From contig JAWXAY010000071.1 in assembly GCA_034439715.1 (NCBI GenBank), forward strand, positions 1 to 17,543: DNA of 17,543 nt. The letters run 5' to 3'. Source of the DNA: Pseudomonadota bacterium. Lineage in GTDB: Bacteria; Bdellovibrionota; Bdellovibrionia; Bdellovibrionales; SG-bin7. The translations under genes and the position numbers were made by a program. The notes below the pieces were generated by a model. That model searched no databases. It was not told the origin of the DNA and saw nothing but the letters and a program-made list of their open reading frames with translations. This document shows, piece by piece, positions 1 through 17,409 of the stretch (the stretch's first letter is position 1; every line of letters begins with the position of its first letter).

Positions 1-307
1 ACTACCTCTCCTGCTTGACCATTCAAGCCGTTATGAGAGGCAATCTTTTAACCTATGCTCAACTTACAAACCGGAAGGAATTACGTTGCACCCAACAAGT
101 ATGAAGCTGGGGCGCTAGAGAATGCAAAATCAGCAGACCCAACAGCGGCTGGAATTCGCGAAAGTGTGTGTGATATTCTTGAAGGTGGAAAAGGTGCTTT
201 TAGAAGTCGCGAACAGAAATATAGGCTAGAACAATGAACGGCGAAGATTTAATACAAAAAAACCGTAAAAATAGTAATCAGGTTGAAAATAGAAACAAAA
301 TTCAAAA

Positions 308-1087
308 ATGAGTATATTACTAGAATACCACAGAACAATCGGTGCTGAGCTGACTGAGTTAAAAAACAGAGTCAGGTACTTACTTGGAGATACCGAACAT
401 TGGCTTAGCGATGGACGCCATAAAGAGAGCATTTTAAAAAATGTATTAGAAAGACATTTACCTGAAACTATTTCCGCCTCTAACGGCTTTATTCGCTACC
501 CTGAGACTTGTTCATCAGAAATTGATTTGGTTTTATACAACAATTCCAAACCATTGCTGTTTAAGTCTAATGATCTCGTAATTACCACGCCAAGTACAAT
601 ATTTGGGGCTATTGAGGTTAAAACAAACTTGAGAACCGATGGTTTAGAGACCGTGCTGGCAAAACTTTCTGATAATTCTGAGAAAACGATTAATCAGATA
701 CATAGTAATGCTTGGGAGAATTTGGACTTTTCGAAGGGTCAATTGCAGCAGCATCCATGGTTTTCATTATTTTGCTATGAAAGCGAAGTTCCAGATCGGA
801 AGCTGCTTGAGTGCTTAAAAAGTACGGCCAATCTTAAATACGAGAGGGCCATAAAATGCGTTACCTTGGGCGAAGATAAGTTTATTAGATTTTGGAGTGG
901 CCAAAAGAAGCGTCCTTATGACAACGAATCCTTCACTGGATGGAAGCTTTATAAGTTAAAAGGCCTCTCCTTTTCATATTTTATTTCAAATATGATTTGG
1001 CAGGACCAACTTCTTACCAGTGAAAACTCTCCTTGGTTTGCGTTGAATGACAAAGAGACTGAATTAATTGATTCAATCGAATTTTAA
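308..1087 (+). CDS. DUF6602-like protein, predicted PD-(D/E)xK nuclease fold; candidate anti-phage defence cargo
   Basis: 259-aa ORF with 'HWLSDGRHKESILKNVLERHLP...SNGFI...SSEIDLVLYN...P...GAIEVKTNL', the G-x3-E / D / EVK pattern of DUF6602 and restriction-endonuclease-like proteins. Lies on the 3' side of a tRNA. No clear SD sequence. Confidence 0.75.
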   Translation: MSILLEYHRTIGAELTELKNRVRYLLGDTEHWLSDGRHKESILKNVLERHLPETISASNGFIRYPETCSSEIDLVLYNNSKPLLFKSNDLVITTPSTIFGAIEVKTNLRTDGLETVLAKLSDNSEKTINQIHSNAWENLDFSKGQLQQHPWFSLFCYESEVPDRKLLECLKSTANLKYERAIKCVTLGEDKFIRFWSGQKKRPYDNESFTGWKLYKLKGLSFSYFISNMIWQDQLLTSENSPWFALNDKETELIDSIEF

Positions 1088-1273
1088 TCATTTCCCAATC
1101 AACTGCTGGTTCAACCACCTAAAGCTCATGCCACCATGCTGATGTGCTTTGGCAGCTTCGCGACCTACGCAACCAGTGGCTTCAACCAGAGTGCCAGCAG
1201 CACCAAGCATAATGGCCACATAAACTAAACTTCGAATAAATTGCACGACTCCATACATAAGACCTACTTTCAT
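1088..1273 (-). CDS. small hypothetical membrane protein (start may be ATG at 1258)
   Basis: 61-aa ORF with one hydrophobic segment (LVYVAIMLGAAGTLV) followed by an amphipathic tail. Its stop abuts the DUF6602 stop exactly (1087/1088). AGGT precedes the second Met. Confidence 0.5.
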   Translation of the reverse strand: MKVGLMYGVVQFIRSLVYVAIMLGAAGTLVEATGCVGREAAKAHQHGGMSFRWLNQQLIGK

Positions 1274-1336
1274 TTGTAATGGCCTTTGAATTTCGAAAGT
1301 CTGTGAGTGGTCATCTGCGGCTGCGAAACTTAAGTT

Positions 1337-1353
1337 CCGTCAGTCACCCCAAA
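1337..1353 (+). repeat. inverted 17-bp copy of tRNA-His 3' end (att-core-like)
   Basis: CCGTCAGTCACCCCAAA at 1337-1353 is the exact reverse complement of 1549-1565 (TTTGGGGTGACTGACGG). Confidence 0.92.
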
Positions 1354-1396
1354 AACTGGAAACAGTTATCAGAAGCCGAAAACAGGGTTCAAAACC

Positions 1397-1426
1397 TGTC
1401 ATCAAGGTGTCATCAATCTGTCATCA
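1397..1426 (+). repeat. three direct repeats TGTCATCA with 11-bp period; putative integrase arm-type sites
   Basis: TGTCATCA at 1397, 1408 and 1419. The repeats are directly visible; the function is inferred by analogy with tandem P' arm sites of lambda-type tyrosine integrases. Confidence 0.75.
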
Positions 1427-1441
1427 TTTTTTGAAATCTGC

Positions 1442-1461
1442 CGAAATTTCATGAAATATCG
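1442..1461. repeat. 20-bp imperfect palindrome with perfect 12-bp core
   Basis: CGAAATTTCATGAAATATCG; the core ATTTCATGAAAT (1446-1457) is a perfect palindrome. Confidence 0.7.
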
Positions 1462-1490
1462 ATGCGAACGCTCGCTCTTCGTTTGTGTGT

Positions 1491-1503
1491 TATTAAGTAC
1501 TTA
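1491..1503 (+). promoter_or_regulatory. IHF-like binding site
   Basis: TATTAAGTACTTA matches WATCAANNNNTTR with one mismatch and lies between the tRNA core and the arm-like repeats. Confidence 0.4.
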
Positions 1504-1550
1504 GAACCATTTGGTATTTTGTTTTTCGACTACGAACCTGAGAAGAAATT

Positions 1551-1627
1551 TGGGGTGACTGACGGGGCTCGAACCCGCGACAACCGGAATCACAATCCGG
1601 GGCTCTACCAACTGAGCTACGGCCACC
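1551..1627 (-). tRNA. tRNA-His (GUG), with encoded G-1 and CCA
   Basis: Minus strand GGTGGCCGTAGCTCAGTTGGTAGAGCCCCGGATTGTGATTCCGGTTGTCGCGGGTTCGAGCCCCGTCAGTCACCCCA: D arm, anticodon GTG, GTTCGA T loop, G-1:C73 His identity pair, 77 nt. Confidence 0.98.
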
Positions 1628-3794: not shown

Positions 3795-3871
3795 AAGGTC
3801 CCAATTTCATAATGAATTGTCAAACCGTAGTTCAATGACCTACAACTAATGTTGTTAACAAGGAGTTATTG

Positions 3872-4510
3872 ATGTTGCGCTTGAAAAAAATCTATTCATT
3901 TTTATTTTGCATGGGCCTGTCGTTAAATTCGCTCGCCCACTTTTCAGCTATGGATACAGCCGACACTTTACCCGAGAATCGCTATCGCCTGATGCTAGAG
4001 CCGCAAGTTATTTCTGGGGGACCCTCGGGCACTAATATTTTAGTTCGGTTTGATGCGTCTCTTAACAACGAGTCAGGGTTCAGAGGAGTTTTGGGTATCG
4101 GAAGTTTAGATTTACAGGCTGGCGCTTTTTATAAGTGGGCGCCCATTCCCGATGTTGGTGATCAGCCGGCCATAGCACTTACAACTGGCTTTGCTTATGC
4201 GAATTACGACGGCCAAGATTTATTTAGTCTTCGCGCTTACCCCACTGTCAGCAAAAGATATCAATGGGAATTGGGGGAGTTAAATCCCTATCTCTCGCTG
4301 CCATTTTCTATGGCCTCACAAGACGGCCAAAGTTTGTTCCCTATTCAACTAGCCATCGGTAGCGAAATAAAATTTAGGCAATTAAAAGATCTCGATTTTT
4401 ATGGCGAAGTAGGAATTGAAGTTAAAGATTCTTATAGTTACATTAGCATAGGTGTTGCCGCTTACTTTGACGAAAGCGGCGCACTTATTAAGCCTCAAAA
4501 AATAGACTAA
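3872..4510 (+). CDS. hypothetical secreted protein, probable outer-membrane beta-barrel
   Basis: AGGAG at 3861-3865 before ATG 3872; signal peptide ending SLA; alternating hydrophobic/aromatic beta-strand pattern throughout. Confidence 0.7.
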   Translation: MLRLKKIYSFLFCMGLSLNSLAHFSAMDTADTLPENRYRLMLEPQVISGGPSGTNILVRFDASLNNESGFRGVLGIGSLDLQAGAFYKWAPIPDVGDQPAIALTTGFAYANYDGQDLFSLRAYPTVSKRYQWELGELNPYLSLPFSMASQDGQSLFPIQLAIGSEIKFRQLKDLDFYGEVGIEVKDSYSYISIGVAAYFDESGALIKPQKID

Positions 4511-4513
4511 AGT

Positions 4514-6448
4514 TTAATCTGAACCTTTCACGTCTTTGAAATCAGCGTCGATCACGTCTTCACCATGTTTAGCGCCCGAAGACTTATCAGAAGCAGTTTC
4601 TTCGCCACCACCAGCGGCACCGTTACTAGCGCCACTCGCACCAGCTCCCGCTTTACTGTAAAGCTCACTACTCAACTTATAACTTATCGTTCTTAGCTTT
4701 TCAGAGACCTGTTTAATAGTGGCAACATCTTTGGCATCAGCAGCAAGAACCTTCTTAGCCTGTTCAATTGTTTCCTTAGCTTGATCAACATCGGCCTTGC
4801 TCAAAGACTTCTCGCTATCTCGAATCATTTTTTCGGTCTGGTAAACCAGAGAGTCCAACTCGTTACGAGCGTTAATGACTTCTTTTTTTGCTTTATCTTC
4901 TTCAGCGTGGGATTCCGCATCTTTCACCATGTTTTGAATCTCGGTCTCAGACAAACCAGATTTTGCTGTGATCTTAATTTGCTGTTCTTTACCTGTTCCC
5001 AAATCCTTAGCAGAAACATTTAGAATACCGTTAGCATCAATATCGAACGTAACTTCCACTTGCGGCACACCTCGCGGAGCCGGAGGAAGCCCGGTTAATT
5101 CAAAGCGGCCCAAACTTTTATTATCTGCCGACATTTCTCGCTCACCTTGAAGCGCATGAATGTCTACACTCGGTTGGTTATCAGCTGCCGTCGAGAACAC
5201 TTGTGATTTGCGAGTAGGAATAGTGGTGTTTCTCTCTATCAATCTGGTCATGACTCCACCCAAAGTTTCAATTCCCAGCGATAAAGGCGTTACGTCGAGT
5301 AGCAATACGTCTTTTACCTCTCCCCCTAAAATCGCCCCCTGCACAGCAGCTCCGACAGCTACAACTTCGTCAGGGTTCACAGAGCGATTGGGCTCCTTAG
5401 CAAAAAACTCTTTTACCAAATTTGAAATAGCAGGAATACGCGTAGTCCCGCCCACCAAAACCACTTCATCAATATCTTTAATGGTATAACCGGCATCGGC
5501 CAAAGCCTTTTTTGTAGGACCCAGCGCCCGGTTGACAAGGCTTTCAGTCAATTGATCAAATTTCGCCCGTGTTAACTTCATCGATAAGTGCTTAGGACCG
5601 CTAGCGTCAGCTGTAACGAAAGGGAGGTTAATATCCGTTTCCATAGACGAACTTAATTCGATTTTAGCTTTCTCTGCGCCCTCTCGAAGTCTTTGAAGCG
5701 CCATTTTATCTTTTCTTAAATCAATGCCTTGTTCTTTTTTAAATTCATCGGCCATCCAATCGATGAGTACCGAGTCAAAATTATCACCACCTAAATGCAC
5801 ATCACCATTGGTGGCCTTAACTTCTACGACATTGTCGCCAACTTCGAGAATAGAAATATCAAAAGTACCACCACCAAAGTCAAAAATAGCAATTTTTTGA
5901 TCTTTCTTTTTATCAAGCCCGTAAGCAAGTGCGGCTGCCGTCGGTTCGTTAATGATCCGCTTAACCTCAAGCCCTGCAATACGACCAGCATCTTTAGTCG
6001 CCTGTCTTTGTGAGTCGTTAAAATAAGCGGGAACAGTAATCACCGCCTCGGTGACTTCATGGCCTAAATAGTCTTCAGCGACTTTTTTTAGTTTGGCTAA
6101 CACAGCGGCTCCGATTTCTTCAGGTGAGGCCGTTTTGCCTTGGACTTTAAAGGCCACGTCATTTCCCTTTTTTTCGACAGAGTAGGGCACCAGTTTTAAT
6201 TCCTCTTGAATTTCTTCAAAGCGGCGACCAATAAATCTCTTAGCCGAATAAATAGTATTTTCTGGGTTTGTAACAGCCTGGCGTTTAGCGATTTGCCCTG
6301 TCAATTTTTGGCCATCTTTAGTAAAGGCTACGACTGAGGGGGTGGTGCGTCCGCCTTCTTCGTTAACGAGAACCTTAGGTTGCCCACCTTCCATAATAGC
6401 CACAACTGAGTTCGTGGTGCCTAAGTCAATTCCAATTATTTTTCCCAT
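4514..6448 (-). CDS. dnaK: molecular chaperone DnaK (Hsp70)
   Basis: '[11 protein letters not shown]', '[14 protein letters not shown]', '[10 protein letters not shown]', '[14 protein letters not shown]', C-terminal 'DVIDADF'. Confidence 0.99.
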
Positions 6449-6498
6449 TTTAATCTCCCCTGCCTGTTCATTTTTAATATCAGTTCATACTGTTTTAA

Positions 6499-6526
6499 AT
6501 CTTGGTTCACTTTCGATTTCGTCAAG
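6499..6526 (-). promoter_or_regulatory. sigma32-like promoter of dnaK
   Basis: Minus strand CTTGAC-N15-CCAAGAT in the dnaJ-dnaK gap; same -35 and spacer as the dnaJ site. Confidence 0.55.
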
Positions 6527-6537
6527 CCTTCAAATAT

Positions 6538-7632
6538 TTATTTCCGCCTAAAAAATCCTTTGGCGGGCGTAGAATGTCCCTTAAGTCCGGCAATTTCGCG
6601 CAAAAGTCGGTCTTCCTCTTTGTCTAGCTTCTTAGGCACATCAACTACCACTTCATATAAAATATTGCCACGACCATATCCTTTGAGATGGGGGACTCCT
6701 TGGCCAGGCAACATCAAAACTTCGCCAGGTTGGGTCCCCGTTGGAACACTCAGAGTTTCTTCACCTTTAATGATAGGCACCTTAACTTCTCCACCTAAAA
6801 TTGCCTGAATGTATGAAATATGAATGCTCGTACCTAAATTTTGACCTTGTCTTTCAAAAATCTTGTGTGGCTTTACGCGAATTTCTACATATAAATCACC
6901 AGAGACACCCTCGCTATATCCACCTTCGCCCTCACCAACGACTCTTAGCCTGGTACCAGTGTCAACACCAGCAGGAACTGTGACTTTTAAATTGCGTTTT
7001 TTTAATTCACGACCAGTGCCCTTACATTTCGCACAAGGATCTTTAATAACTGCGCCCTGGCCGCGGCACGATGGACAGGTCGTTGCCATCGAAAAAAAAC
7101 CTTGATTGCGAACTACTTGTCCCGCGCCACCACATTGTTTGCAGACCTCAGCCTCACTGCCCTTAGCCGCGCCTTTACCCTTACAGGGGGCACAACTAGC
7201 TTCGCATTCAAATTCTATGTCTTTTTCAATTCCGCCAACGACATCTTCTAACGAAATATCTATGAGGTATCTTAAATCTGCGCCGCGCCTTCGAACATCG
7301 CGACGCTCAGTTCGTTGTCCACCGCCAAAAAAATCTGAGAAAATATCTGAGAAACTCGAAAATATATCGTTCACATCATGAAATCCGGGATGTCCCCTGC
7401 CCCCCATGCCATTGACACCGGCATGCCCAAAGCGATCATAGCGAGTACGCTTTTCTTTATCGCTCAAAATTTCATAAGCTGACGCCGCTTCTTTAAATTT
7501 ATCTTCGGCGGATTTGTCTCCTGGATTACGGTCAGGATGGTATTTCATAGCCATCTGACGAAAGGCCTTTTTGATAGCGTCCGGATCTGCGTCCTTTTTT
7601 ACCCCTAAAATTTCATAAAAATCTTGAGCCAT
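6538..7632 (-). CDS. dnaJ: chaperone DnaJ (class A)
   Basis: J domain with HPD, G/F-rich region, four CxxCxGxG repeats, C-terminal substrate-binding domains. Confidence 0.99.
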   Translation of the reverse strand: MAQDFYEILGVKKDADPDAIKKAFRQMAMKYHPDRNPGDKSAEDKFKEAASAYEILSDKEKRTRYDRFGHAGVNGMGGRGHPGFHDVNDIFSSFSDIFSDFFGGGQRTERRDVRRRGADLRYLIDISLEDVVGGIEKDIEFECEASCAPCKGKGAAKGSEAEVCKQCGGAGQVVRNQGFFSMATTCPSCRGQGAVIKDPCAKCKGTGRELKKRNLKVTVPAGVDTGTRLRVVGEGEGGYSEGVSGDLYVEIRVKPHKIFERQGQNLGTSIHISYIQAILGGEVKVPIIKGEETLSVPTGTQPGEVLMLPGQGVPHLKGYGRGNILYEVVVDVPKKLDKEEDRLLREIAGLKGHSTPAKGFFRRK

Positions 7633-7653
7633 GCGTTTTCCCCAATCTCCTTA

Positions 7654-7681
7654 ATATGGGTTTGTAGGACAGTCCGTCAAG
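7654..7681 (-). promoter_or_regulatory. sigma32-like promoter of dnaJ
   Basis: Minus strand CTTGAC-N15-CCCATAT, close to the RpoH consensus CTTGAA-N13-15-CCCCATAT. Confidence 0.7.
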
Positions 7682-7946
7682 GAAAGGGCAGGGAATTTTT
7701 TATCTCTCTTTGAAACAGAAAAATATACTATAAGCCGAATTAGGTCACTTTCTGCTAACCAAAAGTCAGACAGCGCTCGCGAAATCCCGATTAGTCCTGT
7801 GATTTAGACTACTTATTTGTGTCTGAATACTCGCCATTGGTCGCAGAAGTAACAATATTGAGACGATTATTTTGGCCATTCGTCAAAAATTTTCTCATAA
7901 TAAGGCGGAACACACTCAAAATCCGTTTTGAAATAAAACGCTTTTT

Positions 7947-7962
7947 GGGCATGCGAGTTGCA
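7947..7962 (+). promoter_or_regulatory. sigma54 (-24/-12) promoter of pilA
   Basis: GGGCATGCGAGTTGCA = GG-N10-GC, 88 bp upstream of the pilin ATG; pilA is sigma54-dependent in Pseudomonas, Myxococcus and Geobacter. Confidence 0.78.
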
Positions 7963-8050
7963 CAAATACACGTTTGAGTGCCGATGAACAATTTGTCTTA
8001 AATTAGGAATCGGATTGAGTTAATTTTTATAAACCATTAGGGGGAACGTT

Positions 8051-8605
8051 ATGAGAAAAAATTTAAAATCCCAAGCGGGATTTTCATTAATCGAGTTGAT
8101 GGTGGTGGTCGCCATCATCGGAATTTTAGCAGCAGTCGCTATTCCAAACTTCACAAGGTTTCAGATTAGGGCAAAACAAACTGAGGGAAAATCTCAACTA
8201 GGCTCAATCTATTTAGGCGAGAGAGTTTACATGACAGAGTACGCCGGCACCTCTAGCGCGCTCTCAGACATCGGAATCGTTCCCGATGGTGGACTGATTT
8301 ATAATTGTGGGTTAGTGGCTGCCGGAGCAGGAGTAAGAGCGGGCCCCGCTACCAATATTACCGCGGCTCCTTTAAATACCGGTGGGACTATTGCAACCTG
8401 GTGCGCAACGGCTGGTCCGGCGATATGCAGCGCAAAGCCTGGATATGTATTTGACCCCTTAGTAGGGGCTGCCGCAGGAGGCGCCGCACTTACGTTCACA
8501 GCAGTATGTTCAGCAAGACTTCGACCTGCTGCTGCTGCAACAGATGATACGTGGACTATGAATCACCTTAATGTGATGGGAAACACTTTAAACGCATCAA
8601 ACTAG
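8051..8605 (+). CDS. pilA: type IVa major pilin
   Basis: Class III signal MRKNLKSQAG/FSLIELMVVVAIIGILAAVAIPNF with E5; GGGGA RBS; own sigma54 promoter and downstream hairpin, as expected of a highly expressed major pilin. Confidence 0.93.
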   Translation: MRKNLKSQAGFSLIELMVVVAIIGILAAVAIPNFTRFQIRAKQTEGKSQLGSIYLGERVYMTEYAGTSSALSDIGIVPDGGLIYNCGLVAAGAGVRAGPATNITAAPLNTGGTIATWCATAGPAICSAKPGYVFDPLVGAAAGGAALTFTAVCSARLRPAAAATDDTWTMNHLNVMGNTLNASN

Positions 8606-8622
8606 TAGACCAATTAGAATTG

Positions 8623-8657
8623 TTTCTGAGCAGAGCTTTTCTGCTCAGAAAATTTTT
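8623..8657 (+). terminator. stem-loop terminator/stabiliser after pilA
   Basis: TTTCTGAGCAGA-gcttt-TCTGCTCAGAAA (12-bp perfect stem) followed by ATTTTT. Confidence 0.8.
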
Positions 8658-8686
8658 GCATTTTACTTTAAAATATTTGTGATTTT

Positions 8687-9403
8687 ATGACTTCTTATTT
8701 TTTATATTTGTTATCGCTTACTATCTCCTTTCTATTGGTACAACTCTCTCTATTGGCTATTCCAAAGCTCGATGCAATTTCACTCGCTATTGCGCCCCCA
8801 AAAATCATTTCTCAATTTAATTTTGGCTTCAGTCACTTAATGGCCGATTTGTTATGGGTGAGGTGGTTACAAAGTATTGATCTCTGTACCCAGTCAGGCG
8901 GATTCAATGAAGAGGTTTTTAACACTACAAAAAAAACTTTAGACCCTAAGCAAAATATCGGAAAATGTGAATTGGGTTGGTCTTACCAAATGCTTGACCG
9001 CATAACAGATCTTAATCCTGACCTTCAGATCGCTTACCGCGTGGGAATCACAAGCCTGAGCGTGTTTGTAAAGGACTACAAAGGTGGCAGTCTCCTAATT
9101 GAAAAGGCCATGCGGCGTTACCCCAAAAACTGGATTATGGCCTACCGCGGCGCCTACCACTATATGTTCGAAGATATCAATCCCGACAGAGCTGCCGAGC
9201 TATTATTTATTGCAGCAAAAAATGGCGGGCCGATTTGGTTGGCATCTCTGGCCGCGAAACTCAATATGGAACAGTCTAAGGACGAGTTTGCGCTCAAATA
9301 TCTACTTGAAATTCGCGAACAATTTCCCGATAGCGAGCATCAAGTGGGAATCGAGAGGCGCATTGCCGAAATAAAGAAACGCCTGAATTCCAGAAAAAAA
9401 TAA
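8687..9403 (+). CDS. pilin-associated membrane-anchored TPR-like protein (myxobacterial PilG-like family)
   Basis: N-terminal TM segment; 'LMADLLWVRWLQ', 'LDRITDLNP...AY', 'IEKAMRRYPKNW' helical repeats resemble proteins encoded after pilA in deltaproteobacteria. Confidence 0.6.
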   Translation: MTSYFLYLLSLTISFLLVQLSLLAIPKLDAISLAIAPPKIISQFNFGFSHLMADLLWVRWLQSIDLCTQSGGFNEEVFNTTKKTLDPKQNIGKCELGWSYQMLDRITDLNPDLQIAYRVGITSLSVFVKDYKGGSLLIEKAMRRYPKNWIMAYRGAYHYMFEDINPDRAAELLFIAAKNGGPIWLASLAAKLNMEQSKDEFALKYLLEIREQFPDSEHQVGIERRIAEIKKRLNSRKK

Positions 9404-9415
9404 CCTTTAAGGCGA

Positions 9416-9443
9416 CTTGATTTTTTTTAAAGACGCCACAGAT
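9416..9443 (+). promoter_or_regulatory. sigma32-like promoter of clpSA
   Basis: CTTGAT-N15-CACAGAT, same geometry as the dnaJ and dnaK sites. Confidence 0.5.
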
Positions 9444-9450
9444 TGTAGGT

Positions 9451-9816
9451 ATGTATCCTTTGGCCCCATTGATGGAGGACGATAACTCTAAGATTGGTAG
9501 CGAGCCCGGCAACAACGCAGGGGTGAATACCATCGTTCGTCCTGAAGAAAAAACAGAGCTCAAAAGGCCGTCAATGTATAAAGTGATTTTACTTAACGAC
9601 GACTACACACCCATGGATTTTGTGGTGAATATTCTGAAAAAGTTTTTCACCAGAACCGAAACAGAGGCAACACAGATTATGATGAATGTGCACCACCAAG
9701 GTCGAGGAATTGCTGGAGTTTACGCTTATGAGGTAGCCGAGACCAAAGCCTACCAAGTTCAGAATTATGCAAAGCTGCGAGAATTCCCACTTAAGTGTAT
9801 AATAGAAAAAGAATAA
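9451..9816 (+). CDS. clpS: ATP-dependent Clp protease adaptor ClpS (alternative start 9472)
   Basis: 'PSMYKVILLNDDYTPMDFVV', 'IMMNVHHQGRG', 'EVAETK', 'FPLKC'; directly upstream of clpA. Confidence 0.97.
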   Translation: MYPLAPLMEDDNSKIGSEPGNNAGVNTIVRPEEKTELKRPSMYKVILLNDDYTPMDFVVNILKKFFTRTETEATQIMMNVHHQGRGIAGVYAYEVAETKAYQVQNYAKLREFPLKCIIEKE

Positions 9817-9846
9817 TAAAGGAACCAGCACAATGCTGAAAAAAAT

Positions 9847-12132
9847 ATGTTAAGTCGCGAACTACAAATTCAGTTAAACAGGGCCTTTCAAATGGCCGGG
9901 AGCCGTCGTCACGAATACGTGAGCCTCGAGCACATGCTATTTGCATTTACTGACGACCGCGAAGTTTGCGCAATTGTAGAGGGCTGTGGTGGTAGCATTG
10001 ATAAGTTAAGAAAACGTCTTGACGATTTTTTAACCAGTTCTTTTCAAAACTTGACCGTTCCCGTCGACCCCCGTGCTGAATGGAAGCCTGAACCCACGTT
10101 AGCCTTTCAAAGAGTTTTACAACGCGCTGTCATTCAAGTGCAAAGTGCGGGTAAAAATGAAGTCTCATGCGGGCATTTGCTCGTCGCTTTTTATGAAGAA
10201 CCTGAATCACATGCAGTTTTCTTTTTACAAGAACAAGGCATTAATAAATTTAATGTCGTGGATTTTATTTCTCATAGTCTCGGTCGAGAGTTGCCTCCGG
10301 ACTCTTCGGAACAAACAGACATCGACGGCCGCCCCTTAGACGATTCCAAGAGGCGAACTTCTGCTGCCCCGCTCGAAAAGTTTACCGTAAATCTCACGGC
10401 GCGGGCCAAGCAAGGTTTGATTGATCCTATGATTGGGCGTGAAAACGAACTCGAACGCGTGATTCAAATTTTATCTCGCCGCACAAAAAATAATCCCTTA
10501 CTTGTCGGCGACCCAGGGGTGGGCAAAACGGCCATCGCTGATGGGTTAGCATTAGCTATTGTTAAAGATAATGTGCCCATTGGCCTCAAAGGCGCCAATA
10601 TTTACTCGCTAGACATGGGCTCACTACTTGCTGGAACTAAATTTCGCGGAGATTTTGAAGAAAGAGTTAAAGCTGTAATACAAGCCATCGAAAAAGACCC
10701 GGGCGCTATTTTATTTATTGACGAAATTCATACAATTGTTGGTGCAGGATCAACAAGTGGCGGTTCACTCGATGCTTCAAATTTATTGAAACCGGCACTT
10801 GCCGCGGGGAATTTAAGCTGTATTGGCTCTACCACTTACAAAGAGTTTCGCCAATATTTTGAAAAAGATCGCGCTTTAGCTCGACGCTTTCAGAAAGTGG
10901 ATGTCTCCGAACCCAGTCTCGAGGACACTGTAAAAATTCTCGAAGGCATTAAAGTTAATTACGAAAAATTTCATATCGTCACTTATTCCTCAAGTGTTGT
11001 GCGCGCGGCCGTTGAATTATCGAACCGCTATATTACTTCAAGAAAACTACCTGACAAAGCCATCGATGTGATCGACGAAGTAGGGGCCCGCCTGCGTATG
11101 AAGGCTAAAGATGTCTCTTCGATTGAAGCCACCGTTAAAAATGTCGAAGACGTGGTGTCGGCAATGGCGCAGGTCCCGGCACGAACAGTAACCAATGACG
11201 ACCTCAAGCTTTTAAGCTCTCTCGAAGTCGGCTTAAAGTCCGTCATTTTTGGCCAAGATAAAGCGGTCGAAAGCGTAGTAACAGCTATAAAATTTAATCG
11301 CTCGGGCCTGGGCAACACAAATAAGCCCGTTGGCAGTTTTTTGTTTGCCGGCCCCACGGGCGTCGGTAAAACTGAACTTGCAAAACAACTCGCTACATTC
11401 TTAGGAAACGAGTTTATTAGGTACGACATGAGTGAGTATATGGAAAAACACTCAGTGTCTCGTTTGGTCGGCGCCCCTCCGGGATACGTCGGTTTTGAAG
11501 AAGGTGGCCTGCTCACCGAAAGCGTCAACCAACACCCCTACTGTGTGTTGTTATTTGATGAAATGGAAAAAGCCCACCCTGATGTCTCAAACATTCTCCT
11601 ACAAATTCTCGATAGCGGCAGACTCACAGATTCTAACGGAAAGTCCGTTGATTTTAAAAACGCGATCATTATCATGACCACTAACGCGGGCGCGCGCGAA
11701 ATGGCTCGTCCCAACATTGGTATTCAGGCCCAACCGGGAGCACAAAAATCACAAGATGCCATTAAGCAGTTTTTCTCGCCAGAGTTTATAAACCGCTTGG
11801 ATGGTGTGGTGACATTTAATAACCTCGACAAACCGCTCTTGATGCGTGTTATTGACAAATTTCTGGCCGAACTCACAGTTTTGCTCAAAGATAAAAAAAT
11901 TGAACTTATGATATCTTCTGAAGCCAAAGACTTTTTGTTTGAAAAGGGTTACGAGCCCGCCTATGGTGCTAGACCCTTTAATCGCGTGATTGATGACCGA
12001 CTTAAAAAACCGCTTGTCGATAAAATATTGTTCGGAGATATGAAAAAAGGCGGTCGCATAAGCGTTACTGTGAAGGGCGACTCGTTAGATTTTTCTTATG
12101 TCTTAAAAAAATCTAAACCAACTAAACACTAG
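9847..12132 (+). CDS. clpA: ATP-dependent Clp protease ATP-binding subunit ClpA
   Basis: Clp N domain ([10 protein letters not shown]), two AAA+ modules ([28 protein letters not shown]), no ClpB middle coiled coil, IGI ClpP-docking loop, 761 aa. Confidence 0.97.
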
Positions 12133-12671
12133 TTGGTTTTAGTAAACTGCCCCCGTAAATATTCCGTTTCAATTTCCATGTGGCAATTGTTCGGATAGGG
12201 CCCCGTACAAACGTCACGAACTGTTTGCTTTTCGATGATTGAAAGCCCGAGGTTTTTATTAGAGCGATCGTCGCTAAAATAAATCTCTAAAGTAATCCCG
12301 AGTATCTGTCCTCTACATTTATTGGCATCAAACTTAAATGTAGCCTGAGTAAGTGTCGGATTTTGGTCATCACCTTGAAAGTAAAGGTAAGCCAAGTCAC
12401 CCACATTTGATTCGCACTCGGCACCTAAAAGGTCATCGCCCTTGCCATCAACAAAACTAGCTTTTACATAGTCATTATTCAAAGCGAGGATGAGTTTTCC
12501 GGGCATTCCATTAAACTTCCCTAAGTACTCTCCCATGTATTCTTGAGCCTTAGGTAGATGTTCTTGAGGCACGCGTCCGTTTTCAATAGTGACCCGTTTA
12601 CACCCAACTAGCGTCAACGCTACAGATAACGCTAATAAACTTATTAGAAATTTGCTGAAAATATTAACCAT
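12129..12671 (-). CDS. hypothetical lipoprotein
   Basis: Signal peptide with lipobox LVG-C; AGGAG upstream; four further Cys; stop overlaps the clpA stop by 4 bp. Confidence 0.8.
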   Translation of the reverse strand: MVNIFSKFLISLLALSVALTLVGCKRVTIENGRVPQEHLPKAQEYMGEYLGKFNGMPGKLILALNNDYVKASFVDGKGDDLLGAECESNVGDLAYLYFQGDDQNPTLTQATFKFDANKCRGQILGITLEIYFSDDRSNKNLGLSIIEKQTVRDVCTGPYPNNCHMEIETEYLRGQFTKTN

Positions 12672-12795
12672 AAAAGTACTCCTTAGAATTGGGTCGATAA
12701 AAACATTTTTAAGTCTCTAACGCAAGTCTTATTGACAAAAATTAAATCCAACTCAAACTGAAGTTCGCTTATGTTTATGAAAAAAGGAGCTTTAC

Positions 12796-13695
12796 ATGTT
12801 TAACTTAGCAAAACGGGTATTTTTGATGCTGCTACTCAACATCCTAGTATTAGTGACCATAAGTATCATTCTTAGCGTCACAGGCCTGGGCAGTTATTTT
12901 TTCAAAAACGAGGGTGATTACCTCGCCATGTACCTGTTTTGTTTTGTCTGGGGCACAGTTGGTGCTTTTATCTCACTACTTTTATCTAAATTTTTTGCAA
13001 AAATGATGATGGGCGTACAGATTGTAGATCCTAACTCTCGGGATGCAAACTCGCGAGAACTCGTAGTGCTGGTGCATGGCCTTGCGAGGCGAGCGGGTCT
13101 TATAAAAATGCCCGAGGTGGGAATTTATGAAAGTCCTGAAATTAATGCCTTCGCCACTGGTCCCTCTAAAAATAATTCTCTGGTGGCAGTATCGACAGGC
13201 CTGTTGAATCGCATGGACCGTGATCAACTGGAAGGGGTGCTTGGGCACGAACTTGCCCATGTCGCCAACGGGGATATGGTCACCATGACTATTGTCCAGG
13301 GAATTGTGAACTCATTCGTGATGTTTTTTGCGCGCATTATAGCATCGATTTTAGCCCCTAAGGATAGCGAGGGCCGCTCAAACTTCTTTGGTTATTATAT
13401 GACTTATCATCTTGTAGAAATCGCCCTAATGTTCTTAACGATACCCATCGTAGCTGGAGTGTCGCGCTGGCGGGAATACCGGGCTGATCTTGGCGGCGCC
13501 AAAATTGCCGGTAAAGAAAAAATGATTGGCGCACTAAAGGCTCTTTCGGGAACTGAAAAATCTGTCGACAATAAAGAAGCCGCTTTCGCGTCTTTAAAAA
13601 TTTCAGGAAAAAGATCCGGTGGCTTAGCATTGTTTTTTATGACACACCCACCACTCGAAGATCGAATTCGTCGCCTTGAACAAGCTCGAGTCTGA
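12796..13695 (+). CDS. htpX: membrane zinc metalloprotease HtpX (M48)
   Basis: 'PEINAFATG', 'VAVSTGLL', HExxH 'HELAH', 'NGDMVTMT', 'SRWREYRAD', 'THPPLEDRI'; AAGGAG RBS. Confidence 0.97.
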   Translation: MFNLAKRVFLMLLLNILVLVTISIILSVTGLGSYFFKNEGDYLAMYLFCFVWGTVGAFISLLLSKFFAKMMMGVQIVDPNSRDANSRELVVLVHGLARRAGLIKMPEVGIYESPEINAFATGPSKNNSLVAVSTGLLNRMDRDQLEGVLGHELAHVANGDMVTMTIVQGIVNSFVMFFARIIASILAPKDSEGRSNFFGYYMTYHLVEIALMFLTIPIVAGVSRWREYRADLGGAKIAGKEKMIGALKALSGTEKSVDNKEAAFASLKISGKRSGGLALFFMTHPPLEDRIRRLEQARV

Positions 13696-14611
13696 TCCAG
13701 GAAAAGATTATTACACAGGTGCTTTGGCTGCGGGAATGACCGCTTTGATTTGGGCCGTGCAGGCCATCATACTCAAACTGGCTGTGGTATCGGTCTCGCC
13801 AAGTCTGGTTGTTTGGTTTCGATTTGTTTTTGCCTTTTTCGTTATTTTACTTTTCTCGCTAATGTCTGACAAAAAAGAAACATTGAGAATTTTACGCCGA
13901 CCGCCGCCGAAGGCCATTCTCGCCGGGCTATTCTTAGGTTTAAATTACTATGGATTTATAAAGGGCCTCGAACTCACAACTCCTAGTAATGCACAAATTG
14001 GAATTCAACTGGGGCCATTTGGTTTAGCGCTTTTTGGTATATTTCATTTTAAAGAAAAATTAAACAACCTTCAGAAATCAGGATTGATTTTAACTCCTGT
14101 GGGCCTAGTGTTATTTTTTAAAGATCAGCTGGGCAATTTTTTATACAACGAACAAGCCCTCATCGCGGGTTATATTTGGATATTATTTGCGGCAGCGACT
14201 TGGATTGCTTATTCAGTCCTGCAGAAAATTCTAGGTCAGACACTAAAAAACAGCTTAGTACTAATGGTTGTCTATTTGACCGCAGGCCTACTCTTTACAC
14301 CTCTGACAACGCCGCCTCAATTGCTAGATTGGACACCCCTTATCTGGACCATGATGTTGATCTTAGGTGGTACGACTCTACTTTCGTATGGCTTTCTTGC
14401 CTTTTCGCTAAGCAAGACCCCAGCAAGCGTTGTAAGTATGATCATTACGGTCAATCCTTTGCTGACAATTTTTATTATGACCAACATATCCGCAGAGAAC
14501 TCGTGGGGCCTACTGCCAGAAAGGATTCAAGGCCTAGGTAATGCGGGAGCGCTTTTTGTGGTCGCAGGTGTTATTTTAAGTGTATATCGTCCTCGAAAAA
14601 AACTGCTATGA
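13676..14611 (+). CDS. DMT/EamA family transporter
   Basis: About 10 TM segments in two EamA repeats ('VVWFRF', 'GLELTTPSNA', 'FHFKEKL'); TTG start overlaps the htpX end, exact start uncertain. Confidence 0.9.
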   Translation: MNKLESDPGKDYYTGALAAGMTALIWAVQAIILKLAVVSVSPSLVVWFRFVFAFFVILLFSLMSDKKETLRILRRPPPKAILAGLFLGLNYYGFIKGLELTTPSNAQIGIQLGPFGLALFGIFHFKEKLNNLQKSGLILTPVGLVLFFKDQLGNFLYNEQALIAGYIWILFAAATWIAYSVLQKILGQTLKNSLVLMVVYLTAGLLFTPLTTPPQLLDWTPLIWTMMLILGGTTLLSYGFLAFSLSKTPASVVSMIITVNPLLTIFIMTNISAENSWGLLPERIQGLGNAGALFVVAGVILSVYRPRKKLL

Positions 14612-14620
14612 TAAATACAT

Positions 14621-16909
14621 ATGTCACGTGTGCTGTTCGCCCTTATTGTCGTTTTAGGTTGCGCCTCCACGGGTGTTGAAATCCCGCCGCCGCCGGCCGG
14701 CAGTATTCCCAGTGATGCTCTCGGTACTGTTCCCCCTCTAACTACCGTCGACGCCCCCAGCGTAGCCCCAAAAGAAGGCCCCGATGAAACCCAAAAAGAA
14801 ACTGCAAAAGAAGATAGCGAAAAGAACCGCGAAAAACTTTGGTGGCAAACTTATAAAACCGCGCTAACTCAATTAGAATTAAATCCGGAACTCTCGTGCA
14901 AACCCTTTTTTGATCTTAGCGCTGACCCCGAGTTTCCGTTACACTTCGAAGCCGTACTTCGTGCAAGACAAGCTTGTGGCGCCAATTCAGCTCTACCTTT
15001 GGTTTTTGATTATACTCAGTTCCGCTCCAAATCTTGGCTGTGGCCACTTGCCCTTGAAGTCACTAAGAGTGAGGCTCAAGAAAACGACGATTATAAACTC
15101 TTAGCTACCATTTTATTGGAACAATCAAAGCTATCAGTCAATTCGGCCGAAAAAATCGATCTCACTGAACAAGCTATTTCTATAGCAAATCGCGCCTTAG
15201 ACAAGAATCAAGACAAAAAATTAAAAGCCGTGCTTGCTAATAGACTTTATAAACTGGCCCCAAGAAAAAAACCTCATCCCACACCTGAAGACCTCTTGAA
15301 AGTTGCGGCTGACTATAAAAAAATCAGAGATTTTAAACAAGCGCTTTACAACTATAATTTGGTGGTGAAGTCAAAGCGTTCAAGCACCGACGAGGTTTAT
15401 CGAGCCCTGTTAGGAATAAAAAGCAGTCATAAATTGGCCGAGGACAAACCGAAACATATTCAGGCCACCGAGCGACTCGTGCGTTTTGTGAAAACTAGTT
15501 TTTTAGCGGTAAAAGTTAAAAATCCCCAGTACAAGCGTCTTTTAAAACGCTATCACGACAACCTTGTGCTTTTAGCTCGCGCCTACTGGACAGAAGGTGA
15601 AGTTAAACAAGCCGTAAGCCTGTTACAACAAACCGAAAAGGTTTTGAAAAATCGTTTCAACTTAAATGAAGTCTATTGGTTACGTGGAAGAATTGAAGAA
15701 GAAGCCCAGCGCCCGGAACAAGCCATCAATTGGTTTGAAATGAGTGAACGTGAATGTAAATCTGTCTGTGCCATCAAAGAAAAAATTCTTTGGACTGCAG
15801 CTTGGAATTTTATTAAGATCAAACAATTCAAAGAAGCCACGACGCGACTACAAAGCCTTTACGACACAACAGAAAACCCTTTTGCTAAGCCCAAATATTT
15901 ATTTTGGCGCGCTAAAGCTCTCATTCAGATGAACGAAGCTGATTCTGCCAAAACCCTTTTTAAACAAATTGTTGAGGATGACTCCACTGGCTATTACGGA
16001 ATGCTCGCTTATCGTGAACTGGGCCAAACCATTCCGCCGGTGCAGTCGGCTTCTCTGAGTGGTACTTTGGGGATTGTGGATTCTGACAAAAATACTTTTC
16101 TTTCTTCGCCAGAGGGACGCTATGCCGGCTGGCTCTTGGCGGTTGGCGAAAATAGCTTTGTGGGTGAATACTTAGATGGGCAATTTGCGTGGATCAAAAA
16201 AAACAAGCTGGGTGATAGTGAGTATGTCTCGCACTATTTAAGCACTTTTGCAATGGTCCAAGAGTATTTGAAATTATTTGCCCGCGTCGGCGAACTACCT
16301 GTGACAGAACGTAATCTTATTCTGGCCAAGCACCCCGACATGGTTTTTCCGCAGCCCTTTTCTAGAGAAGTCAGCGAGGCCGCTGAGAAATACGGAGTAA
16401 AGTCCGAACTGATATATGCCATTATGAGGCAAGAGTCTGCGTTTAACCCGATGGCGCGTAGCCCGGCTGATGCCTTTGGCCTTATGCAATTAATTCCTCG
16501 AGTGGCCAAGCTGGCGGCAAAAAGCTCGGGCGTGCCCTTAAAAGAGAACAAAGACCTTTATAAGCCTGAAGTAAATATCCCACTAGGCGCTGCATTTTTA
16601 AAAGATTTATGGCAGCGCTATGATGGTCAATTTGTTTTGGTCGCCGCTTCTTACAATGCTTCAGAGGCAGCCATTCGCAGCTGGATCAATACGCGATTTT
16701 TTGACGATCCGATCCGATTTATCGAAGACATTCCCTATGACGAGACCCAAGGCTACGTGAAATTAGTTTTAAGAAATTTTATTTTTTACTCTCGCCTTAG
16801 TTCTAAAGGCGAGGCGATTTTGTTTCCGGAGTGGTGTTTGGCAAATTTACATGAGTTTAAAGGAAAGCCACAGATATCGGGTGCTCGAATCCCGGCATCG
16901 AAAAAGTAA
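14621..16909 (+). CDS. Slt70-like lytic transglycosylase lipoprotein with TPR-like superhelix
   Basis: Lipobox VLG-C, Pro-rich linker, helical repeats, 'GYYGMLA', GH23 motifs 'IMRQESAF', 'GLMQL', 'SYNAS', 'IPYDETQGYV'. Confidence 0.93.
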   Translation: MSRVLFALIVVLGCASTGVEIPPPPAGSIPSDALGTVPPLTTVDAPSVAPKEGPDETQKETAKEDSEKNREKLWWQTYKTALTQLELNPELSCKPFFDLSADPEFPLHFEAVLRARQACGANSALPLVFDYTQFRSKSWLWPLALEVTKSEAQENDDYKLLATILLEQSKLSVNSAEKIDLTEQAISIANRALDKNQDKKLKAVLANRLYKLAPRKKPHPTPEDLLKVAADYKKIRDFKQALYNYNLVVKSKRSSTDEVYRALLGIKSSHKLAEDKPKHIQATERLVRFVKTSFLAVKVKNPQYKRLLKRYHDNLVLLARAYWTEGEVKQAVSLLQQTEKVLKNRFNLNEVYWLRGRIEEEAQRPEQAINWFEMSERECKSVCAIKEKILWTAAWNFIKIKQFKEATTRLQSLYDTTENPFAKPKYLFWRAKALIQMNEADSAKTLFKQIVEDDSTGYYGMLAYRELGQTIPPVQSASLSGTLGIVDSDKNTFLSSPEGRYAGWLLAVGENSFVGEYLDGQFAWIKKNKLGDSEYVSHYLSTFAMVQEYLKLFARVGELPVTERNLILAKHPDMVFPQPFSREVSEAAEKYGVKSELIYAIMRQESAFNPMARSPADAFGLMQLIPRVAKLAAKSSGVPLKENKDLYKPEVNIPLGAAFLKDLWQRYDGQFVLVAASYNASEAAIRSWINTRFFDDPIRFIEDIPYDETQGYVKLVLRNFIFYSRLSSKGEAILFPEWCLANLHEFKGKPQISGARIPASKK

Positions 16910-16911
16910 AG

Positions 16912-16927
16912 TGGCACAATGATTGAA
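16912..16927 (+). promoter_or_regulatory. possible sigma54 promoter with non-canonical -12 (TTGA)
   Basis: TGGCAC-AATGA-TTGAA in the 53-bp gap before the HAMP gene; perfect -24, GA instead of GC at -12. Confidence 0.4.
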
Positions 16928-16962
16928 TTAAACCCCGTCACGTTCCCTGAAAGGAAGCACCT

Positions 16963-17409
16963 ATGACCCCTCAACGAAAAATATTAATAGTAGATCCCAA
17001 ACTCCAGTATCGGATTATGGGGATGATAATTGCGAGCGGTATCGGCGTATGCCTGGTGTTTCTCGGGGCCTTTTTTTACGTCATGACCAAAATATTTGAT
17101 GTATTAATTCAGGTCGATGGGCTCTCTCCTGAGGAAAAGATGGAGCTATTCCAGAGCTGGAACAAAATGCTGAATTTAATGGTGGTACTCGTCGGGTCGA
17201 CCCTTGCCGGCGTATGGATGTGGGCCCACTTTTTTACCAACAAGATTGTTGGCCCTATATTTAACACAATTAAAAAGCTTGATGAGTACTTGGCTGGAGA
17301 TCTTAGTGTGCGAGTACATCTCCGAAAAAAGGATTACTTTCAAAGTTTAGCCGTAAAGATCAATCAAGTTCTCGACAAGGTGTCGGAGCCTAATAAATCT
17401 AAATCTTAA
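16963..17409 (+). CDS. two-TM membrane protein with C-terminal HAMP-like domain, no output domain
   Basis: Two hydrophobic helices, then 'KIVGPIFNTIKKLDEYLAGDLSVRVHLRKKDYFQSLAVKINQV'; AAGGAAG RBS. Confidence 0.75.
   Translation: MTPQRKILIVDPKLQYRIMGMIIASGIGVCLVFLGAFFYVMTKIFDVLIQVDGLSPEEKMELFQSWNKMLNLMVVLVGSTLAGVWMWAHFFTNKIVGPIFNTIKKLDEYLAGDLSVRVHLRKKDYFQSLAVKINQVLDKVSEPNKSKS

Follow-up and report, generated by a model that had tools for sequence, protein, structure and literature searches.

The window, by which we mean the whole 17,543-nucleotide stretch of DNA analyzed here, is the start of contig C71 in a 3.26-Mb genome of 111 contigs and contains attL, the left junction of an integrative element of Bdellovibrionales that targets tRNA genes by means of a tyrosine integrase. 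Past the left arm of this element the 3' end of the target tRNA recurs as an exact inverted copy. Comparison across the element family suggests that this copy is probably less a DNA flip-switch than one part of a conserved RNA-level control unit, which is found in mobile elements from predatory bacteria and is complementary to the element's own xis gene. We put at roughly one in two the probability that the unit yields an antisense leader RNA, probably fed by read-through from the tRNA, that restrains excision; its expression is a proposal.

The integration target is tRNA-His(GTG) (1551..1626, minus strand), the sole tRNA-His found in the assembly, and the att core of the left junction (1549..1565, minus strand) comprises its last 15 nucleotides plus 2 nt. 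The core is adjoined by a conserved left-arm spacer (1427..1548, minus strand) with three GAAAT repeats at a 10-nt spacing (1433, 1443 and 1453), which we regard as conceivable candidates for Xis-type sites. Beyond the spacer are three arm-type repeats with a period of 11 (1397..1426, minus strand): these appear as TGTCATCA starting at 1397, 1408 and 1419, and correspond to TGATGACA on the tRNA strand. A DUF6602 protein (308..1087, plus strand) is cargo by position. At 1..99 lies a repeat end, 97-99 nt of which are common to the ends of contigs C15, C63 and C109; since the assembly breaks at this repeat, the element body lies on other contigs. The repeat, common to four contigs, is probably the end of an insertion sequence. 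On the other side of the tRNA are host genes (3869-17409), which we take to code for DnaK, DnaJ, ClpS, ClpA, HtpX and a lytic transglycosylase; a type IV pilin gene is also found among them by a pilin motif match.

The counterpart of this junction appears to be located on contig C3. Here, a 366-aa tyrosine integrase with an arm-binding domain is followed by two arm repeats and then by a 14-nt direct copy of the tRNA-His end (C3:24495-24508). A reading made earlier from the sequence alone had placed an integration site with arm-like repeats here, and had suggested looking for a distal direct copy and a tyrosine integrase. These expectations are borne out: the tRNA target, the arm-type repeats and the distal direct copy behind the integrase define an attL; two like arm copies lie in the same orientation 3' of the C3 integrase; and both the direct copy and the integrase are present on C3, which is linked to C71 by the common arms and core rather than by contiguous sequence. 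Since the C3 integrase is followed by the same arms and by a direct copy of the core, the segment 1354-1548 constitutes the left arm of an integrated element, and C3 probably holds the right end of that element. Contig C38 overlaps C3 and ends in an HTH_17 xis, the domain being seen on the homologue L052. Hence, C38 and C3 probably hold the xis, integrase and direct repeat of the window element, with arm repeats flanking the core on both sides and Xis adjoining int. Upstream of xis on C38, which we infer to belong to the element, are VirB4-like, TrbI and FtsK-like genes (5 of the 11 scanned ORFs had matches); none of these 11 ORFs matched a relaxase family. The named relatives of the C3 integrase are from Bdellovibrionales, and a PDB search with it recovered distant Xer/lambda matches only.

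Across the family the order of components is: tRNA, left arm, cargo, xis, int, right arm and direct repeat. The direct repeat is found behind the integrase on a single contig in L107, L174/L204 and L081/L196, and one of 20 long regions downstream of left ends, that of L107, contains a complete element. C3 itself continues with two further elements separated by tRNA-His end fragments. Thus, C3 (genome G000), like L015, displays a tandem array of at least three elements at such fragments, featuring two integrases and two coupling-protein modules as well as cargo genes that are large and RHS-like (RHS assigned by eye); tandem accretion at one tRNA is described for IMEs in the accessible part of PMC5704250. 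The arm pattern had no matches in viral contigs, a Protein Atlas search gave a best score of 0.80 and no lead, and no obvious repressor was seen beside xis-int in the contigs inspected.

The inverted copy (1337..1353, minus strand) is, as had been claimed earlier, an exact 17-bp reverse complement of 1549-1565, from which it is separated by 195 nt. Given the span of tRNA-His(GTG) on the minus strand (1551-1626), the match corresponds to the last 15 nucleotides of the tRNA plus 2 nt. When 43 tRNA and tmRNA genes of the same genome were compared for the longest inverted match to their own 3' end within 380 nt, the 17 nt seen here were followed by a next best of 8 nt, and therefore the match is not due to chance. 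The repeat also has a 16/17 match at C94:42083, within a 536-aa gene; we discounted this match as fortuitous. The suspicion of an assembly artefact falls away, since contigs from all four public runs bridge the 1337-1353 junction with no joints and in the window's orientation (contigs drop rare forms): X1 and X2 cover 70-1580, X3 covers 693-1580, and X6 covers 1246-1470 and 1441-1580, with X1 possibly being the source sample of the window. None of the listed contig pieces of these runs continues through the tRNA.

A sister strain (L098) differs from the window at two positions in 3450 nt, 1416 and 1560. Position 1560 is inside the tRNA copy, and the repeat is consequently only 16/17 in L098. 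It corresponds to position 67 of the tRNA: the acceptor stem has a C6:A67 mismatch here, and G67 in the sister strain. The inverted copy and many right ends likewise have A67, and so this base may derive from the element by exchange or conversion. At position 1416, which lies in the arm array, the window has A, and all four runs and L098 have T.

A search with a cassette-internal pattern recovered 33 matches in 27 of the 384 genomes of the order and 7 metagenome loci; pooled with other loci and counted as distinct, these give 38 left ends, the examined set excluding two contig-edge matches to the arm pattern (G188:C298 and G213:C235). The inverted copy (at least 11 of 14 positions matching) is present in 14 of the 38, always 40-46 nt after the last arm, and is missing or decayed in 24. 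Nine of the carriers, including the window and its sister strain, have a His-type copy at a His site, two have a Gly-type copy at a Gly site, two have a Gly-type copy with the target unseen, and one (L074) has a His-type copy at a Gly site. In another arm class a Cys-type copy (L131, L193) is closer to the element's version of att than to the host tRNA (L139 compared). The tree of 35 left ends is poorly resolved; as most His-type carriers group together in it, the tracking of His and Gly amounts to about one switch plus the discordant L074 rather than to 14 events, which suggests few independent switches of copy type. Several left ends (L067, L072, L080, L095, L126, L128) have a second short inverted repeat, which starts at CCA and closes about 25 nt downstream: it is found in many Gly-type and some His-type ends. 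In L069 (G101) an insert after the anti-core carries a direct fragment resembling another tRNA 3' end, and IS-like or other insertions recur in or just past the hairpin described below (L049, L076, L085, L102).

As for the proposal that the segment is invertible, 33 of the 38 homologous left ends are forward, none is inverted and five are unclassified. The window has the flanking inverted repeats of an inverton, and the second orientation is not seen among the 38 ends or in the contigs of the four runs. The last 7 nt of the repeat are the likely, inferred crossover, since other elements at the same tRNA also have them; this terminal 7-mer is mismatched in four of the 14 carriers (L079, L081, L091, L092) and is of the wrong tRNA type in L074. 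A fixed position, a fixed orientation and the fact that mismatches are tolerated speak against switching in the chromosome. They also speak against the scar of a one-off inverted integration, another suggestion of the sequence-only reading, which does not fit a position fixed across the whole family. We also dropped the possibility of a 229-bp internally deleted mini-element in which the arms would go with the inverted copy: in relatives lacking this copy the arms are unchanged and stand equally far from the tRNA.

On the tRNA strand the inverted copy forms the 5' strand of a predicted 13-pair hairpin (1317..1347, minus strand), which is conserved while both of its sides have changed between the His and Gly types of copy; 1348-1351, the complement of C73-C74-C75-A76, lies outside the stem. 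The partner strand switches with the His or Gly type of the copy. In 12 carriers 82.6% of the cells are paired, versus 72.2% in shuffled alignments (0/500) and 37-49% in slid controls, and six of the 13 pairs are changed on both sides (39 of 500 shuffles reach that); in alignment A4 the Gly-type outer stem is one column off, which lowers the pair counts. G-U outnumbers A-C by 22 to 8 on the tRNA strand, a weak strand signal; these counts come from related sequences selected for carrying the copy, with the structure taken from the window. The hairpin reaches z <= -1.6 in only 10 of 18 cases, and the 126-nt leader folds no better than its shuffles (z -0.63). In the predicted lowest-energy fold of a read-through transcript the copy pairs with the tRNA end and breaks the cloverleaf; with tRNA and leader as two molecules, the predicted cofold is 19.9 kcal/mol below the separate folds. 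A role as terminator was rejected, as a U-run is absent after the hairpin on both strands. Similar structures occur at the other end of these elements: among the right ends of 66 integrase loci many fold a local hairpin with a loop of 3-11 nt, in which the tRNA 3' end is the 3' strand and NCCA is left free. Of these, 23 of 66 beat shuffles at p<0.05, with G-U at 28 and A-C at 16 (p=0.10); we make no claim as to strand, because the other strand folds slightly better on average. Going by the predicted folds, the right-end hairpin may either give the int transcript a 3' end like that of a tRNA or form a single-stranded att structure.

The second part of the unit is a segment (1284..1325, minus strand) that overlaps the 3' strand of the hairpin; apart from small bulges it is the complement of a stretch in the 5' coding part of the cognate xis. 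The target on C38 begins 48 nt past the xis ATG, and is thus in the coding region and off the ribosome site. The family set comprised 80 integrases, 63 distinct usable xis segments and 66 left ends. The duplex scan left out the 15 integrases that have no usable xis segment, and 49 left ends were scored, the other 17 having no xis of the same class. The best duplex partner belongs to the cognate arm-and-target class for 17 of these 49 (2.8 expected) and to the same arm class for 29 (5.9 expected). A class-level permutation, with 10 arm classes of at most eight left ends and six xis each, gives p=5e-5: the own class is best in four of the 10 rows and second in two, and three classes show nothing. 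Fifteen hand-picked pairs, linked by contig or by arm and target, rank between 1 and 11 of 63, with six being first; the window's own pair ranks 6 of 63, with related xis above it.

The complementarity is also class-specific in its details. Matching changes particular to a class are seen in the Pro class (L174/L204), in the Ser class (L187/L247, over ~45 nt) and in the genome's own Gln pair (C62/C36); most xis/left-end pairs contain bulges of 1-4 nt. On account of the class-specific changes and the bulges we favor base pairing over a protein site. Codon choice in xis is also constrained: among 10 of these genes from the arm class of the window, the synonymous codon is invariant at seven of 13 target codons versus three of 32 downstream (p=0.003). 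Wobble pairs show no strand bias in the anti-xis pairings (G-U 44/359 vs 34/296, p=0.81), and the sequence accordingly does not give the strand of the segment. Even between distant integrase classes, the sequence of the anti-xis segment follows that of the cognate xis; complementarity to a specific mRNA that evolves along with this mRNA is what one looks for in a trans-acting antisense RNA.

The unit is followed by a conserved 56-aa ORF (1088..1258, minus strand; 61 aa from an upstream ATG at 1273), with a short stem predicted over its ribosome-binding region (1259..1286, minus strand). The protein has a hydrophobic N-terminal half and one long predicted helix, and matched no Pfam or PHROG family. 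It is found in 79 of the 384 genomes of the order and in 322 database proteins, and marks the left ends of the element family, with differing arm motifs. The layout of tRNA, arms, short segment and small ORF recurs at His, Gly, Cys, Leu, Ser, Pro, Gln and Met tRNAs. At the Gln and Pro left ends C62 and C24 (G000), a different small hydrophobic ORF occupies the position of the 56-aa ORF. No terminator-like site was seen between the tRNA and the ORF, no promoter-like consensus site in 1000-1800, and in an Rfam scan of 1000-1750 only the tRNA scored above the gathering threshold.

Based on these observations, we propose that a leader RNA read on the tRNA strand would contain the anti-core hairpin, then the anti-xis segment and then the small ORF. 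When the element is integrated, the leader would be produced by read-through from the host tRNA promoter, the simplest source given that no terminator-like site intervenes; alternatively, read-through of xis-int on the excised circle could produce it, with a nested fold recalling lambda sib. It would pair with the xis mRNA, resulting in less Xis and thereby less excision. The anti-core would be an optional module or gate, dispensable in some members: it may pair with RNAs ending in the att core, be it the tRNA or the int transcript, and thereby open the hairpin. As the 3' strand of the hairpin overlaps the anti-xis segment, such pairing would expose more of the latter in the His types. Right ends carry similar hairpins ending in the tRNA 3' end, and hence the unit probably arose as an inverted, internally deleted copy of xis-int-att. 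Several observations tell against the leader RNA: the anti-xis pairings have no G-U strand bias and no promoter-like site is seen; the 126-nt leader folds like its shuffles, with 10 of 18 hairpins at z <= -1.6; the xis target begins 48 nt past the start and not on the ribosome site; three classes show nothing and the window's pair is only 6 of 63; the anti-core is absent from 24 of the 38 ends; and C71 is connected to C38 and C3 by common arms and core only.

A broader extension, which we consider speculative and rather doubtful, is that a family of Bdellovibrionales integrative elements senses its integration state via RNA. The host tRNA promoter would drive a trailer acting in trans to silence xis; certain classes would moreover have a hairpin with an unpaired NCCA complement, which the target tRNA, or the int transcript with the att core at its end, would open, tying excision to tRNA transcription or charging.

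Among the alternatives we see it as unlikely that the unit consists of protein sites acting at the DNA level, with the inverted copy being an extra core-type or decoy attB-like integrase site beside the arms that autoregulates a promoter of the small ORF, and the xis-like segment being an operator of which xis has one copy and the left end a second, inverted one. In its favor, the copy resembles an entire attB in covering the terminal 7-mer together with 7 nt on its left and 2-3 nt past it; the Cys-type ends (L131, L193 vs L139) fit the element's version of att better than the host tRNA; and the anti-xis pairs show no strand bias. Autoregulation of an integrase at attL is known for KplE1, as far as described in the part of PMC2951348 available. 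Against this stand the 1-4-nt bulges between xis and the left-end complement in most pairs, and the facts that the partner strand follows the His or Gly type and that inner-stem pairs covary, neither of which a protein site needs.

We hold it to be distinctly unlikely that the unit is functionless, that is an ancient inverted and internally deleted xis-int-att copy kept or refreshed by gene conversion. Such a remnant would account for the order on the plus strand, which reads a 5' piece of xis and then an att end with a right-end-like hairpin, the order of anti-core and anti-xis following automatically; frequent loss, decay and IS insertion also agree with it. It does not account for a position and a class-specific match that recur in several distant integrase classes, for synonymous constraint in xis exactly at the matched part, or for the covariation of the inner stem.

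It is quite improbable that the unit operates as a single-stranded DNA fold-back. In that case core and anti-core (and likewise xis and anti-xis) would pair on the transferred strand of the circle to give either a folded attP like that of CTXphi or a nested fold, by which integration in the recipient would be controlled. The circle would have the nested order xis, core, anti-core, anti-xis; VirB4-like, TrbI and FtsK-like genes are on C38; and the right-end dyad has a center of 7 nt and the inverted dyad one of 12 nt, the 7-nt centers differing among right ends. For comparison, in the accessible text of PMC4246890, CTXphi attP2 and attP1 have centers of 5-7 and 12 bp and are 90 bp apart. However, 24 of the 38 ends that did integrate are without the anti-core, the local hairpin would compete with such a fold, among 66 right ends the hairpins differ in register and in loop size (3-11 nt), and the integrase comes with an arm-binding domain and with arm arrays of the ordinary sort.

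Least probable, and in our judgment very much so, is inversion as suggested by the sequence-only reading, with Int acting on the inverted cores to turn around the 195-bp arm segment, whether in the chromosome or, mainly, on the excised circle: the repeat is a perfect 17 bp in the window strain, the genome has a cognate-looking integrase, one of the two sister-strain differences is the base that perfects the repeat, and an inverted circle unable to integrate would leave no chromosomal trace, but none of 38 ends is inverted, no joints appear in four runs, the terminal 7-mer is mismatched in L079, L081, L091 and L092 and belongs to another tRNA type in L074, and the window has no dedicated invertase. 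Scans for invertons may thus bear in mind that perfect inverted att copies need not flip.

Returning to the antisense leader, the left-end segment, with its match to the cognate xis in distant integrase classes, would provide a testable, protein-free control of excision, and a leader fed by read-through would offer a reason, beyond conservation of the site, for integrating behind a tRNA promoter. An anti-core hairpin, as a full-length complement of a tRNA 3' end, would be unusual in bacteria. Base-pairing RNAs control mobile elements in several known cases: lambda OOP, P22 Sar, IS10 RNA-OUT and P4 CI. Retroregulation by lambda sib works through an RNase III stem. The literature searched, mostly listings and the openings of abstracts, gives no description of an anti-core/anti-xis unit.

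In its general organization the element is akin to tRNA-integrated ICEs and IMEs with heterobivalent tyrosine integrases (PMC5704250, PMC5812530; mv4 Int, bioRxiv 10.1101/2023.11.06.565760), which likewise have a tRNA 3'-end target, a direct repeat at the far end, arms on both sides, an HTH_17 Xis beside int and tandem elements at one tRNA; the accessible parts of these sources describe no inverted core copy or anti-xis past the left arm. From what is available of PMC4246890, the folded attP of CTXphi is similar insofar as the window element, too, would have two inverted att-like dyads, with 12-nt and 7-nt centers, close together on the circle, but in CTXphi host XerCD acts at dif and the fold is required, whereas the window element has its own integrase, arms and a tRNA target, and many members are without the inverted copy. 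Lambda sib (PMC2951348, in the part accessible) is alike in that a site beyond att acts on the xis-int transcript by integration state; however, sib lowers Int, not Xis, and does so in cis, whereas here the complementarity is to xis and also to the att core itself, and the window segment, on the tRNA side, may work in trans. Control of ICE mobility by RNA is represented by the Tn916 antisense orf9 RNA and CTnDOT RteR (PMC5812530, accessible text), in which base-pairing RNA likewise restrains movement of the element. RNA-controlled mobility is already known from Tn916, CTnDOT and lambda sib; the left-end anti-xis unit would be a new variety of it. In most cases the RNAs of Tn916 and CTnDOT, as far as their sources go, and OOP, Sar, RNA-OUT and P4 CI overlap the gene that they target or work on repressors or on transfer genes. 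Unlike these, the segment described here is an imperfect complement, located at the integrated element's opposite end, that tracks xis across integrase classes.
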